64,000 nt of DNA from an uncultured delta proteobacterium (GCA_963775425.1 CAVZJB010000006.1:1-64000), one strand, 5' to 3'; shown: positions 24,602 through 30,639, counted from the first letter of the stretch. Numbers and translations: made by a program. The notes: generated by a model from the sequence alone, not told the origin.

Positions 24602-25087
24602 TCAGGTCAGCGCGCCGAGCGCCTGCTCGGTCACGTCACACAGCGGCACGCCCTGGCGGACCGCCTCTTCGACAATCTCGTGCGCATGACTGGCGAGCCC
24701 GGCGAGGTCGTCGAGGTCGTCGGCCCCCGCGGCGGCCGCGCGGGCGACGGAGCGAAAGAGCGAGAGGCAGGACACGAGCTTTTGCGCGTCCACGGTGCCG
24801 CCCATGAGCGTGACCACGTCGGCGGCTTCGACGCAGACCTTGTCGTGCACGGTCTTGACGGCCTCGACGAGGCGCGCGCGGAGATCGGGGTGGCGCAGGT
24901 ACTCCGCGGCCGCGTCGACGTCGGGGAGGGCGAAGCGCACCGCGGTGGTGGAGCGTGAGACGCCGGCGAGCACCGGGAAGACGAACCACATCCAGTGCGT
25001 GCGCTTGGCGCCGGCGCGCAGCTCGGCCATGGCATCTTCGAAGGTGTGCGCTTGCGCCCGCAGGAAGTCCTCGACGTCGATCGGCAT
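24602..25087 (-). CDS. DUF1810 family protein
   Basis: FLRAQ...ELRAGAKRTHWMWFVFP...EYLRHP.LRARL...DAQKLVSCLSLF. Confidence 0.88.
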   Translation of the reverse strand: MPIDVEDFLRAQAHTFEDAMAELRAGAKRTHWMWFVFPVLAGVSRSTTAVRFALPDVDAAAEYLRHPDLRARLVEAVKTVHDKVCVEAADVVTLMGGTVDAQKLVSCLSLFRSVARAAAAGADDLDDLAGLASHAHEIVEEAVRQGVPLCDVTEQALGALT

Positions 25088-25128
25088 GCCGGTGATCATG
25101 CCGCACCGCGGGACGGCGGAGGGCGCCT

Positions 25129-25623
25129 TTGATCGGGATCTTCCAGGGCGACATCACCACCCTCGGCGTCGACGCCATCGTCAACGCCGCAAACGAGACC
25201 CTCCTCGGCGGCGGCGGCGTCGACGGGGCCATCCACCGCGCCGCCGGCCCCGATCTCCTGGAGGCGTGCCGCGGGCTCGGCGGCTGCCCGCCCGGCGAGG
25301 CCCGGATCACGCGCGGCTTCCGGCTGCGGGCGCGCTACGTCATCCACACCGTAGGCCCCGTCTGGGAAGGCGGCGACGACGGCGAGGAGGACATCCTCGA
25401 GGCCTGCTACCGCAACAGCCTCGCGCTCGCGGCGCGCCACCGCTGCGAGAGCGTGGCATTTCCCGCCATCAGCACCGGCATCTACGGCTTCCCCCCCGAC
25501 CGCGCGGCGGAGATCTGCACGAGCACGGTGAAGGACAGCCCCGACGCGGCCGGCCTCGACGTCACCCTGGTGGCTTTCGACCAGCTCACCGCGCGGCTTT
25601 ATGTCCGCGCCCTCGGGCTGTGA
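25129..25623 (+). CDS. Macrodomain ADP-ribose hydrolase (YmdB/MacroD type)
   Basis: [48 protein letters not shown]. Confidence 0.95.
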
Positions 25624-25700
25624 CGGGCACCACGGCGGAGCCGCTTTCTCTCCGGGGTGCATCCTGATCTAAAACGCGGCTCCTCCCCGAGGTTCCACAC

Positions 25701-28704: not shown

Positions 28705-28811
28705 CGTCCGCCTCGTAGGGCGGGGGCTCGTCCCCCGCTTCGTCCGCCTCGTGGGCGGGGGCTCGTCTCCCGCTTCGTCCGCCTCGTAGGGCGGGGGCTC
28801 GTCCCCCGCTT
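28705..28811 (+). repeat. Three tandem REP-like palindromic units of 35-36 bp
   Basis: CGTCCGCCTC-GTAG-GGCGGGGGCTCGTCCCCCGCTT at 28705, 28741 (variant) and 28776, between convergent genes. Confidence 0.85.
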
Positions 28812-28819
28812 CGAGACGT

Positions 28820-29977
28820 TCAGGCGACGAACGCCTTGTCTTGCGCCGTGAGCGCGGCCTCGGCGTCGAGGAGCACGTCGAGCGGCTCCGGCGCGCCGCT
28901 GCGATCCACGAGCGCCCGCGCGTAGAGCGCGACGCGGGCGCGGTCGGTGATGCGGTCCTTGTCGACCCAGGCGTCGCCGAAGCGCGCGCCGAGGACGCCG
29001 CCGGCGATGGCGGCGACGGTGTCGGTGTCCTCGCCCTGGCGCACGATGTCGAGCAGGGCCTCGCGGGGATCGACGTCGTCGACGAGAGCGGCGCACAGGC
29101 CGAAGAGGCCGCCGAGGAGCGAGAAGGCCTGGCTCGGGTGCAGCGGCGCCTGGCCGTCGGCCTTGTGCGCCGCGCCGGGTCCGCCGCCGAAGAGCACCGC
29201 GGGGTCCACGAAGGGGCGGGCGAGGCGGACGACGACCTCGCCGACGCCGACGACGTCCTGCGGCATGGCCGCGAGCACGCGGGCGAGGCCGAGCGAGAGC
29301 TGGTGGCGCCCGCCGCGCTCGACGGGCCACTTGCCCCGCCCCGAGAGCCACTCGTCCTCGACCTCGGCGACGGCGTCGGGCAGCCCGTCGCGCACGGCGT
29401 CGACGCTCGCCCCGTTCACGAGCTGCGCGCAGGCCCACGCCACCGCGTACGCGAGCGCCATGGAGCGAAGGTCGGCGTGCGTGACGGCGCTCGCCTCGAG
29501 CGCCACCTCGGCGAGCGTGCGCGACGCGTCCCGGTAGAGGGCGCCGAGGGGCGCGATGCGCATGGCGGCGCCGATGCCCGCGGAGGGGCTGCCGGCACGC
29601 TCGGGGGGCGCGCCGCCCTCGAGCTTCTTGACGGCGTTGTCGAAGTGGCGGCCGGTGCCACGCCAGGATCCCTTCTTGGCGCCGGCGACGAGACAGCGCC
29701 CCCACGCCGACGGCGACCACCCGGAGAGGCACACGTTCACGAGCGCGAGCGCCTGCTGCGTGTCGTCGGTGTGGGCCCCGAGCGGCCGCAGGCGCGCGCG
29801 GCGCGCCGCGGGCACGCCGGGCGGGTACGACGCCGGCAGCCCGTCGTAGCTGCCGTACGTCGAGGCAATCTCGGCGGCGCTCCAACGCTCGACGGGGGCG
29901 CCGAGCACGTCACCCCAGGCGAGCCCCCACAGCGTGCCGGCCGCGCGCTCCGCGAGCGTTGCGGCTCGAGCGGGCAT
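28820..29977 (-). CDS. ADP-ribosylglycohydrolase (ARH/DraG family)
   Basis: GLAWGDVLGAPVE, HTDDTQ, G(I)GAAMRIAP, THAD, GEDTDTVAAIAGGVLGA. Confidence 0.93.
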   Translation of the reverse strand: MPARAATLAERAAGTLWGLAWGDVLGAPVERWSAAEIASTYGSYDGLPASYPPGVPAARRARLRPLGAHTDDTQQALALVNVCLSGWSPSAWGRCLVAGAKKGSWRGTGRHFDNAVKKLEGGAPPERAGSPSAGIGAAMRIAPLGALYRDASRTLAEVALEASAVTHADLRSMALAYAVAWACAQLVNGASVDAVRDGLPDAVAEVEDEWLSGRGKWPVERGGRHQLSLGLARVLAAMPQDVVGVGEVVVRLARPFVDPAVLFGGGPGAAHKADGQAPLHPSQAFSLLGGLFGLCAALVDDVDPREALLDIVRQGEDTDTVAAIAGGVLGARFGDAWVDKDRITDRARVALYARALVDRSGAPEPLDVLLDAEAALTAQDKAFVA

Positions 29978-30639
29978 CAGTTGACGTCTTTGATGGTGAC
30001 GACGTGGGCCTGGCGGTCGACGCGCGCGAGCAGTTGCGCGCCCTTGCCGAAGATCTCGATGAGCTTGTCCGGCACGTGGAGCAGCGACGGGTGATCCATC
30101 TTGATGCTCTGCGTCTGGCCGTCGACGGAAGCGCCGACGGGGAAGATGTCGAGGCGCGGCGGCACCGTCTGCACGCGGACGATGACGTCGTCGCCGGCGA
30201 TGCCGGCGTTCTTCAGGAGGTGCCGAGGGACGCGACCGCGGCCGTCGACGCCCACCTTCACCAGGGCGTCGTCGGTGGCGTCGGTGATGGTGTCGTCGTC
30301 GTCGCCGGTGGTGATGGCGACCGGTGGGATGGCGAGCTGGCTGCGCATGGAGTCGTCGTAGTCGGACGCGGGGTGGCGCGGCAGGTGATAGAGGTACGCC
30401 TGCGCGGGCTTCCTCCCCTCGGCGACGACGTCGATCAGGGTCTGGTTGTACGGCCCCATGCTGCCGCGCGAGAAGGCGTCGCGCACGAGCGGCGACACCT
30501 CGCGGTGGCGGATGTCCGCCAGCGACGACTTCACGGCGTTCGAGACGTCGAGCGCGGTGAAGAGCATGCCCGCCGACGTGAAGGTGTCGAGGACGCGCGC
30601 GGTCACGGCTTGCAGTTGGTCCGGGGTGGTCTTGGCCAT
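29977..30639 (-). CDS. Hypothetical protein with a putative N-terminal winged-helix and C-terminal AbrB-like repeats
   Basis: FTALDVS...RHREV...AYLYH; VGVDGRGRVPRHLLKNAGI..DDVIV; TGATG coupling with the ARH gene. Confidence 0.65.
   Translation of the reverse strand: MAKTTPDQLQAVTARVLDTFTSAGMLFTALDVSNAVKSSLADIRHREVSPLVRDAFSRGSMGPYNQTLIDVVAEGRKPAQAYLYHLPRHPASDYDDSMRSQLAIPPVAITTGDDDDTITDATDDALVKVGVDGRGRVPRHLLKNAGIAGDDVIVRVQTVPPRLDIFPVGASVDGQTQSIKMDHPSLLHVPDKLIEIFGKGAQLLARVDRQAHVVTIKDVN

Follow-up and report, generated by a model that had tools for sequence, protein, structure and literature searches.

A Myxococcota gene cluster with two WGR-PARPs, two ADP-ribose hydrolases and a predicted DNA-binding partner, and its links to a DNA ligase paralogue and the type XIII retron

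Introduction

Bacterial PARPs are regarded as rare and sporadically acquired enzymes whose physiological role is unknown, and a chromosomal cluster that encodes two of them beside two predicted ADP-ribose hydrolases raises the question of what such genes do together. The cluster lies at positions 24602-30639 of a 64,000-nt stretch of DNA from an uncultured delta proteobacterium (GCA_963775425.1 CAVZJB010000006.1:1-64000), hereafter the window, and positions are given in window coordinates unless a locus or contig is named. Its six adjacent genes encode a DUF1810 protein, a macrodomain, two PARPs with WGR domains (PARP-A and PARP-B), an ADP-ribosylglycohydrolase (ARH) and a protein designated g6. 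A first-pass annotation had described these genes as a self-contained, DNA-end-triggered circuit of two writers and two erasers, acting in DNA-damage signalling or anti-phage defence.

The analysis presented here favours a different delimitation: the six genes are read as one local form of a network of Myxococcota for ADP-ribosylation and repair that responds to DNA ends, with a probability that we put at about one half. The conserved core consists of PARP-B and g6, the latter being the most constant partner of PARP-B, whereas PARP-A, ARH, the macrodomain and DUF1810 are variable members, the last three of which recur only sporadically. The network is thus less self-contained and less certain in function, yet wider in scope, than was first proposed.

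Results

Conservation of the cluster

The features of the cluster are as follows.

24602..25099, minus strand: DUF1810/Rv1873-like protein, 165 aa (PF08837, E 3.3e-34)
25129..25623, plus strand: YmdB/MacroD-type macrodomain, 164 aa, TTG start codon (PF01661, E 1.2e-48)
25701..27233, plus strand: PARP-A, 510 aa, with WGR, helical regulatory (HD) and ADP-ribosyltransferase (ART) domains (Pfam)
27248..28696, plus strand: PARP-B, 482 aa, a divergent WGR-HD-ART protein (Pfam)
28704..28813, no strand: three tandem 35-36-nt repeats in the spacer between PARP-B and ARH (repeat search)
28820..29977, minus strand: ADP-ribosylglycohydrolase (ARH fold), 385 aa (PF03747, E 4.2e-46)
29977..30639, minus strand: g6, 220 aa, predicted winged helix and MraZ/AbrB-like double beta-barrel (AlphaFold2 fold)

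Listing of open reading frames (ORFs), translation and Pfam searches recovered all six genes at the positions, and with the domains, that had been annotated in the first pass. The DUF1810 and macrodomain genes are divergent, with start codons 29 bp apart, and the macrodomain gene is the first of a plus-strand block in which PARP-A starts 77 bp further on. The start codon of PARP-B is the ATG at 27248, which follows an AGGAGG and lies 14 bp past the PARP-A stop, as had been noted. The stop codon of g6 overlaps the ATG of ARH by 1 nt, and these two genes therefore form a translationally coupled operon.

A survey anchored on PARP-B, with one genome per species, yielded 46 loci, all of them in Myxococcota or 'delta-proteobacterial' records and, among named records, only in Myxococcota; their flanks were searched with the window proteins. 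Among these loci, L042 is the only one from a named isolate. g6 is present in 24 of the 46 loci, within 800 bp of PARP-B in 21 of those, and occupies one of three placements, upstream of PARP-B on its strand or downstream of it on either strand. PARP-A lies directly upstream of PARP-B in 10 of the 36 loci that have at least 1.5 kb of upstream sequence. Where both flanks extend 3 kb or more, as they do in 27 loci, g6 occurs in 18, PARP-A in five, ARH in four and a LigA-like ligase in four, and the macrodomain and DUF1810 occur in none. These counts contradict the idea of a self-contained six-gene unit, and they move g6, which had been placed at the periphery, to the position of constant companion of PARP-B, a place that the hydrolases do not hold. 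Across Myxococcota, then, the pairing of PARP-B with g6 recurs but the full six-gene set does not: synteny reaches five of the six genes in one sister genus only (G001), where the macrodomain, PARP-A, PARP-B, ARH and g6 are kept in the order and orientation of the window on three small contigs.

The association also holds where the two core genes are apart. Each of the five genomes in which g6 is not beside PARP-B carries a single g6 copy elsewhere (5/5), which adjoins a LigA-like gene in two of them and, in one of these two, a third PARP paralogue (PARP-C) as well. In a sample of 151 genomes from the phylum of the window, a PARP domain was found in 10 and g6 in three, and g6 adjoins PARP-B in all three; g6 was found neither in the 141 sampled genomes without a PARP match nor in the seven with other PARP-domain matches only.

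A second survey was anchored on g6 and covered 80 metagenome loci encoding its relatives. With all three PARP types counted together, 34 of these loci have a PARP, 19 have a LigA-like ligase and 41 have either of them, compared with a chance expectation that we estimate at about 0.6% per locus. Where 5 kb or more flank g6 on each side, a PARP is present in 13 of 17 loci, and many of the other loci lie on contigs that measure 1-4 kb. The arrangements vary, as illustrated by L098, which has PARP-A, PARP-B and g6, and by L091, in which a ligase gene on the minus strand is followed by g6 and ARH on the plus strand and by PARP-B on the minus strand.

The ADP-ribose hydrolases and DUF1810

The macrodomain passes the NCBIfam equivalog model NF001664 for O-acetyl-ADP-ribose deacetylase (220 bits, cut-off 200) and matches Escherichia coli YmdB (5cb3) at E 6.9e-48; the GDIT, NAAN and GGGG motifs reported earlier are readable in its translation. 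The ARH match to PF03747 covers profile positions 1-285 of 287, and the protein also matches MJ1187 (E 6e-18), DraG (E 3.9e-09) and ARH3 (E 5.6e-07). Its HTDDTQQ and EDTDT motifs align with those of MJ1187 and contain the previously noted TDD and DTDT, which we take to be metal-binding motifs. The protein falls below the equivalog cut-offs for DraG (TIGR02662, 61.9 bits against 337) and Tri1 (26.8 bits against 490), so that its kinship to MJ1187, DraG and ARH3 holds at the level of the family and assigns it to neither the Ser nor the Arg substrate class. Only two ARH genes are encoded in the genome, each at a PARP locus, and elsewhere ARH adjoins g6 in L019, L028, L051, L053, L073, L074 and L091.

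The DUF1810 protein scores 118.1 bits against PF08837 (cut-off 25) and matches the Rv1873 structure 2jek at E 1.2e-18. It was found in none of 10 family relatives (E ≤ 1e-10), and DUF1810 and the macrodomain were each found in 0 of the 46 PARP-B loci. Both nevertheless reappear in related loci: in L073, a DUF1810 gene (46% identity; Pfam E 6e-35) immediately precedes g6, ARH and PARP-C, the four genes running in one direction, and in L111, a YmdB-type macrodomain gene, whose product is 57% identical, adjoins g6 on the other strand. The macrodomain and DUF1810 are not constant members, each recurring at least once in an independent arrangement, and DUF1810 is best described as a loosely associated accessory member.

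These distributions bear on the possibility that the six genes are not one unit, in which case a PARP-A/PARP-B operon and a g6-ARH operon would simply abut a housekeeping YmdB gene and an unrelated DUF1810 gene, and the symmetry of the cluster would be coincidental. The absence of the macrodomain and DUF1810 from the PARP-B loci, the absence of DUF1810 from the family relatives, the generic YmdB equivalog status of the macrodomain and the unlinked positions of PARP-A and PARP-B in three genomes (G043-G045) would all fit such a juxtaposition. It accords poorly with the retention of macrodomain, PARP-A, PARP-B, ARH and g6 in the sister genus, with the macrodomain beside g6 in L111, with a different macrodomain that follows PARP-C in five genomes, with the different arrangement in which DUF1810 accompanies g6, ARH and PARP-C in L073, and with the location of both ARH genes of the genome at PARP loci. 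Chance juxtaposition is accordingly very improbable in our judgement, the least probable of the readings considered here.

The PARP writers

PARP-A matches the Pfam families WGR (PF05406, E 2.1e-24), PARP_reg (PF02877, E 4.3e-43) and PARP (PF00644, E 7.4e-46), the last over profile positions 1-197 of 199. Its HD-ART region (residues 159-507) matches human PARP3 (3c49) at E 1.2e-112 and 380.8 bits, and the protein scores 263 bits against PARP2 and 229 bits against PARP1. The resemblance of PARP-A to PARP-B or PARP-C of its own genome, at 24-30% identity, is far weaker than that to PARP3. Its close relatives (61-79% identity) are encoded in metagenome bins of Myxococcota and Planctomycetota. The catalytic triad of H364, Y394 and E490 is invariant in 12 of 12 family members and aligns with that of human PARP3.

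PARP-B is more divergent, with Pfam matches to WGR (E 3.7e-16), PARP_reg (E 1e-12) and PARP (E 1.6e-09), the last confined to profile positions 1-95 of 199. Against PARP2 and PARP1 it reaches E about 5e-14, its identity to PARP-A is 29%, and hhalign comparison of the two families gives a probability of 99.9 over 386 columns. All 14 members compared keep H330, Y367 and E462, and the first two residues align with their counterparts in PARP1/2 and PARP-A. The Pfam, PDB phmmer and hhalign alignments all end before the catalytic Glu; as the hhalign alignment stopped just short of it, MAFFT L-INS-i was then used, and in this alignment alone E462 falls on the catalytic Glu of PARP-A and PARP-C, with a 31-residue deletion just before it and insertions around and after the Tyr loop. 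The AlphaFold2 model of PARP-B has a mean predicted local distance difference test score (pLDDT) of 63.8, with most of the ART domain below 50 and low confidence across residues 340-463, and at such values in the ART domain it cannot be used to place E462. The earlier assignment of an H-Y-E triad to both PARPs therefore stands for PARP-A and for H330 and Y367 of PARP-B, and for E462 it depends on the MAFFT placement.

Together with PARP-C, encoded on another contig (C4), the genome has three PARPs. Two relatives of PARP-B, P0237 from Paraliomyxa miuraensis and P0240, carry Lys/Ala-rich N-terminal tails of approximately 50-85 residues (alignment A1, columns 1-90) that resemble histone-H1-like DNA-binding tails.

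g6, the partner of PARP-B

The g6 protein of the window belongs to no Pfam, PADLOC or NCBIfam family. An AlphaFold2 model built on a 14-sequence alignment has a pLDDT of 85.5 and a predicted template modelling score of 0.80. In this model, residues 6-85 form three helices and a beta hairpin, that is, a winged helix, and VIA comparison of residues 4-88 with Fur-family winged-helix DNA-binding domains gives Z 6-7. Residues 119-220 form two beta-beta-alpha-beta-beta repeats, for which the best match is MraZ (1n0e; VIA Z 8.2, root-mean-square deviation 3.0, 96 residues, 10% identity), a Z score at the edge of the 'common arrangement' zone of VIA. The AbrB-type family PF04014 is matched by one of 14 g6 members (E 3.2e-05) and by four of 10 distant relatives scanned, in which the N-terminal domain is followed by a MazE/AbrB-type domain. 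An exhaustive profile search returned 901 representatives at E ≤ 0.001, most of which match only the first ~110 residues, indicating by sequence comparison that this N-terminal segment is a widespread domain without a Pfam family. g6 is therefore predicted from its modelled fold to be a two-domain DNA-binding protein with a winged helix and a MraZ/AbrB-like barrel, and the initial guess of a putative HTH/AbrB protein was right in kind.

Foldseek gave no match of g6 to the PDB at E ≤ 0.001, and the best score in the ESM Atlas was 0.81, below the useful range. A PCNA-like identity was discarded, since the corresponding PDB profile matches reached E about 0.5 only and were regarded as chance. Prediction of a complex between PARP-B and g6 (alignments A1 and A2) gave no answer (score 0.00, mark 0.32) and speaks neither for nor against binding.

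The predicted fold of g6 bears directly on a regulatory reading of the module, in which g6 would be a transcription factor, its DNA binding switched by PARP-B-dependent ADP-ribosylation and reset by ARH, and would govern a regulon for stress or development in these social bacteria. The predicted folds of g6, a Fur-like winged helix and a MraZ/AbrB-like barrel, are both classical for transcription factors; the protein co-occurs with PARP-B strictly in one copy and is translationally coupled with ARH, and endogenous ADP-ribosylation in Myxococcus development is cited in PMC8120803. Such a scheme would leave the ligase paralogue, the ARH-ligase fusion and the retron neighbourhood described below unexplained, no target regulon is known, and PARPs of the WGR-HD type are DNA-break sensors in every studied case that PMC8385414 describes. 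We consider the regulatory reading improbable.

A second locus, the ligase paralogue and the type XIII retron

A second PARP locus of the same genome lies outside the window (G000, contig C4:13656-25416, equivalent to L062:1656-13416) and is encoded on one strand, in the order PARP-C, macrodomain, an 876-aa HEAT protein, a 2-kb gap, a reverse transcriptase (RT) and an ARH-ligase fusion. The HEAT protein matches the PADLOC models WGR_XIII (E 1e-92) and HEAT-ARM_XIII (E 3.2e-52), and the RT matches RT_XIII (E 1.9e-167). The fusion protein, of 1132 aa, joins an ARH domain (E 1.6e-70) to a complete NAD-dependent ligase with adenylation, OB, HhH and BRCT domains, and is one of two LigA-type ligases of the genome, the other being a separate LigA on contig C11. 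The order of the second locus is kept in G002, G004, G006 and G112. The circuit is consequently not closed within the window, contrary to the first-pass annotation, since the same genome has a second PARP, macrodomain and ARH-ligase locus at a type XIII retron.

Type XIII retrons consist of an RT, a SWIM/DEDE protein and a WGR-like HEAT/ARM protein, and include Mx162, Mx65, Sa163 and Ne144 (Mestre et al. 2020, PMC7736814). The same source reports that type XIII correlates with 16S, indicating vertical inheritance, and suggests a possible domestication to non-defence roles. The main texts of PMC7736814 and of a 2026 retron survey (PMC13712802) make no mention of PARP, macrodomain, ARH or NAD-dependent ligase, the words 'parp' and 'ligase' having 0 occurrences each.

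Related loci join these components to the core genes. A LigA paralogue adjoins ARH, PARP-B and g6 in L019, L028, L040 and L049, and PARP-B and g6 follow RT, ARH and LigA co-directionally in L040, L049, L111 and L117, with the mirrored order in L122; the full order in L111 is SWIM protein, RT, ARH, ligase, PARP-B and g6. In G043, G044 and G045, an RT lies within ~6-7 kb of a PARP. The cluster in the window has no RT, the RT_XIII of the genome being on contig C4; retron genes adjoin the core genes in related loci (L040, L049, L111, L117 and L122), so the type XIII retron is to be regarded as a link of the cluster and not as its affiliation.

Several further observations concern these neighbourhoods. 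The 2-kb gap between the HEAT and RT genes (L062:6492-8545, G000:C4:18492-20545) has a lowered GC content (63-69%) and no convincing ORF; a search of L062 against Rfam gave only a chance-level microRNA match and no retron non-coding RNA family, and two ORFs of the gap had no PADLOC match. The gap may hold the retron non-coding RNA or a degenerate SWIM gene. Just upstream of PARP-C lies a gene for an N-terminal glutamine amidase (PF09764, E 3.3e-39; L062:13963-14439), and this position is kept in G002, G004 and G006 (L157, L159 and L160). Six low-GC loci (30-42%; L130, L132, L133, L138, L144 and L150), with many short co-directional ORFs, each encode a WGR-PARP of ~497 aa, which is followed at a distance of 3-5 kb by a relative of the g6 N-terminal domain. 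Their contigs measure 11.8-448 kb (~445 kb for L130 and L132) and probably represent large phages. In L132, the sole low-GC locus scanned, seven of 10 ORFs have PHROG matches, indicating that the pairing of a PARP with the g6 N-terminal domain also occurs on phage-like DNA. In L128 (GC 42%), genes for a ligase, a PARP-C-like protein and a g6 N-terminal domain are co-directional, so the association of ligase, PARP and g6 is not confined to high-GC Myxococcota.

This neighbourhood provides the main rival to the DNA-end-responsive repair network, namely a retron-based anti-phage system, here split into two loci, with the cluster as its effector and reset arm. The type XIII retron, with its RT, multicopy single-stranded DNA (msDNA), SWIM protein and WGR-like HEAT protein, would sense infection, the WGR-PARPs would consume NAD+ or ADP-ribosylate phage or host targets, and ARH and the macrodomain would act as antidote or reset. 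The joining of PARP-C, a second macrodomain, the HEAT/WGR-like protein, RT_XIII and ARH-LigA in a conserved order, the proximity of RT and PARP in G043-G045, the placement of PARP-B and g6 after RT-ARH-LigA with a SWIM gene before the RT in L111, and the pairing of a PARP with a g6 N-domain relative on six low-GC loci, of which L132 is phage-like, all argue for it. An RT is, however, present in only two of the 27 PARP-B loci that have 3 kb or more of sequence on each side, and in three of the 80 g6 loci, and the six window proteins gave two weak matches in PADLOC-DB 2.0, to a 2TM effector (E 0.0077) and, for the WGR domain of PARP-B, to WGR_XIII (E 0.00021). None of the six thus meaningfully matches a defence model, which tells against the anti-phage option as first proposed. 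The cluster also lacks mobile-element hallmarks, has host-like codon usage and a housekeeping context, and has no close relatives on phages or plasmids (see below); the vertical inheritance and possible domestication of type XIII described in PMC7736814 point away from defence, and a DNA ligase paralogue suits repair better than abortive infection. An anti-phage effector arm is possible but unlikely on this balance.

A variant would make PARP-B and g6, ARH, the NAD-dependent ligase paralogue and PARP-C with its macrodomain working parts of a vertically inherited type XIII retron. The msDNA, which has defined ends, would then be the ligand that the PARPs and the HEAT/WGR-like protein read through their WGR domains, and ADP-ribosylation, its removal and NAD-dependent ligation would act on msDNA or on broken genomic or phage DNA. 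We hold this variant to be doubtful and distinctly unlikely.

Composition and chromosomal context

The GC content falls to 62% across PARP-A and PARP-B. The dip sits in codon positions 1 and 2, and the GC content of third positions is 0.95 in both genes, as in their neighbours (0.92-0.96 across all six genes), so that it reflects Lys-rich proteins; recent horizontal transfer of the two PARPs was rejected on this ground. No tRNA lies within window positions 10000-45000 and no integrase or transposase was found among 10 flanking ORFs scanned, and a mobile island was rejected accordingly. Neighbouring genes, here and in related loci, are of housekeeping type, including aspartyl-tRNA synthetase, polyphosphate kinase, a DAHP-synthase-family gene and an M23 peptidase.

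Relatives of PARP-B were found in seven of 50,697 phage records and in 19 of 72,556 plasmid records, at 21-27% identity, and all 19 plasmids are non-mobilizable. g6 had no relatives among the same phage and plasmid records, and neither g6 nor its phage-like relative matched GenBank phages. The distant WGR-PARPs concerned (21-27% identical to PARP-B) are annotated in phages (137-320 kb) of Klebsiella, Stenotrophomonas and Xanthomonas, and the non-mobilizable plasmids that carry them, 0.6-1.2 Mb in size, come from Pseudomonas, Vibrio, Variovorax and Paenibacillus. With host-like codon usage and an ordinary context, the cluster is chromosomal and vertical in character, and we read the network as specific to its lineage.

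The spacer between the convergent PARP-B and ARH genes measures 123 bp and is filled with the three 35-36-nt tandem repeats. Their 13-nt core has 91 copies in the genome, against ~4 that we estimate from base composition, and the repeats are likely a dispersed REP-like or terminator element. A promoter and terminator scan gave no promoter-like site and five terminator-like sites, against 3.3 +/- 2.2 in shuffled sequences, and was uninformative. Directly upstream of g6, on the same strand and 91 bp away, lies a gene for an 825-aa protein (30731-33208, minus strand) without a Pfam family, with SMC/Rad50 coiled-coil matches below threshold and a partial paralogue on contig C10. This protein was not found adjoining g6 in the 46 PARP-B genome loci; the slot adjoining g6 that it holds here is occupied by a LigA-like gene in L019, L028 and L091.

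Discussion

In the network that we favour, the WGR domains of the PARPs would bind DNA ends, as in PARP1-3, and this binding would lift the block that the helical domain imposes on the ART domain. DNA breaks activate PARP1-3 by relieving their autoinhibition, and PARP3 mono-ADP-ribosylates 5'-phosphorylated DNA ends in vitro, a mark that is erased by MacroD2, TARG1, PARG and ARH3 (PMC8385414); the activity of the Herpetosiphon aurantiacus PARP requires DNA (PMC4245714, PMC8120803). PARP-A would be a PARP3-like second writer, in one operon with PARP-B behind the YmdB-type macrodomain, and the PARPs would use NAD+ to ADP-ribosylate proteins (the PARPs themselves and possibly g6) and/or terminal DNA phosphates, like PARP3 in vitro. 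ARH and the macrodomain would strip the modification and the NAD-dependent ligase paralogue would seal the DNA, a step for which an ADP-ribosylated DNA end has been suggested as ligase substrate (PMC8385414). The ligase is here fused to the second ARH at the other PARP locus, and in other genomes it lies directly beside g6 or PARP-B. g6 would act as a DNA-bound adaptor or target of PARP-B, or as a local regulator of the module. The idea of DNA-end sensing, already put forward in the first pass, fits the WGR-HD architecture and the recurrent NAD-dependent ligase-paralogue neighbourhood.

A number of points weigh against a repair network of this kind. The activities of the PARPs and hydrolases are predictions from their domains. 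The ART domain of PARP-B is divergent, its Pfam match ending near the middle of the profile and its AlphaFold2 model being of low confidence, and we infer the role of E462, and with it the activity of PARP-B, since the profile and structure-database alignments stop short of this residue and the model is poor. The window has no ligase, nuclease or Ku-like gene, and g6 could be merely a local transcription factor. Membership of the macrodomain and DUF1810 is weak, because both are absent from nearly all related loci and the YmdB-type macrodomain is a common housekeeping protein. The related loci are not independent counts, because several metagenome contigs are near-duplicates (L078-L082 with L088, L099/L100, L102/L103 and L073/L074). 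Finally, part of the network adjoins a type XIII retron, and retrons are best known as anti-phage systems.

The cluster resembles several known systems in part. Like the eukaryotic clade-1 enzymes PARP1/2/3, PARP-A and PARP-B combine WGR, helical regulatory and ART domains with an H-Y-E triad, of which the Glu of PARP-B is putative, and the match of the PARP-A HD-ART region to human PARP3 extends over 349 residues. Unlike those enzymes, the window PARPs are bacterial, lie in an operon with hydrolases and have neither zinc fingers nor BRCT domains, and in PARP-B ~31 residues are missing ahead of the putative catalytic Glu and insertions surround the Tyr loop. Bacterial WGR-PARPs that co-occur with hydrolases are already known from H. 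aurantiacus (PARP and PARG) and Clostridioides difficile CD160 (PARP, PARG and MacroD) (PMC4245714, PMC5966428, PMC8120803), and jumbo-phage PARPs are known as well. As far as those papers describe, however, PARPs are single, with two genes in one of 27 species (Microscilla marina), and co-occurrence is at the level of the genome, whereas here there are three paralogues per genome with a tandem pair, hydrolases of the ARH and MacroD types, a predicted DNA-binding partner and a ligase paralogue. No PARG is encoded among the six genes, and PARG was not searched for genome-wide.

The likeness to type XIII retrons lies in the related loci and the second locus, with RT_XIII, the WGR-like HEAT/ARM protein and, in L111, the SWIM protein, and the difference lies in the absence of an RT from the window cluster. 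The C-terminal domain of g6 is modelled with two beta-beta-alpha-beta-beta repeats in one chain, as in MraZ, and weak PF04014 matches in g6 relatives point towards the wider AbrB/SpoVT/MazE group; unlike these proteins, g6 has a fused N-terminal winged helix that belongs to no Pfam family. As in DarTG and other operonic pairs of ADP-ribosyltransferase and hydrolase, writer and eraser are encoded side by side and DNA is a possible substrate. Unlike in DarTG, there is no DarT-type ART, the writers are WGR-PARPs, the macrodomain is of YmdB type and not of DarG type, and PADLOC gave no DarG or DarT match.

The composition given in the first-pass annotation, of two WGR-HD-ART writers, erasers of the MacroD/YmdB and ARH types and an HTH/AbrB-type protein, is upheld, and the genes are non-randomly linked to ADP-ribosylation genes elsewhere. 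The two chemically different writer-eraser pairs proposed there are hypothetical. The accompanying statement that no described system of this composition was known agrees with a literature search of main texts. In that search, four features were not found in print: a conserved tandem pair of PARP genes among three paralogues in each genome, a PARP partnered by a member of the g6 family, a fusion of ARH to a ligase together with the ligase-paralogue neighbourhood, and the extension of type XIII retrons by PARP, macrodomain and ARH-ligase genes.

Lineages of Myxococcota thus keep three PARPs per genome, one of them very close to human PARP3, together with g6, two kinds of ADP-ribose hydrolase and an ARH that is fused or adjacent to a ligase paralogue, and this PARP network is repeatedly found in physical linkage with the type XIII retron. 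An action on DNA ends would make the network a tractable bacterial model of how PARP3-type ADP-ribosylation of such ends is made and undone. Were it tied to the retron, the effector still missing from the retrons that were discovered first would be at hand, and if its components are working parts of that retron, the oldest known retrons would gain their first effector chemistry and bacterial PARPs a physiological trigger. Under either reading, g6 is a concrete new experimental handle.

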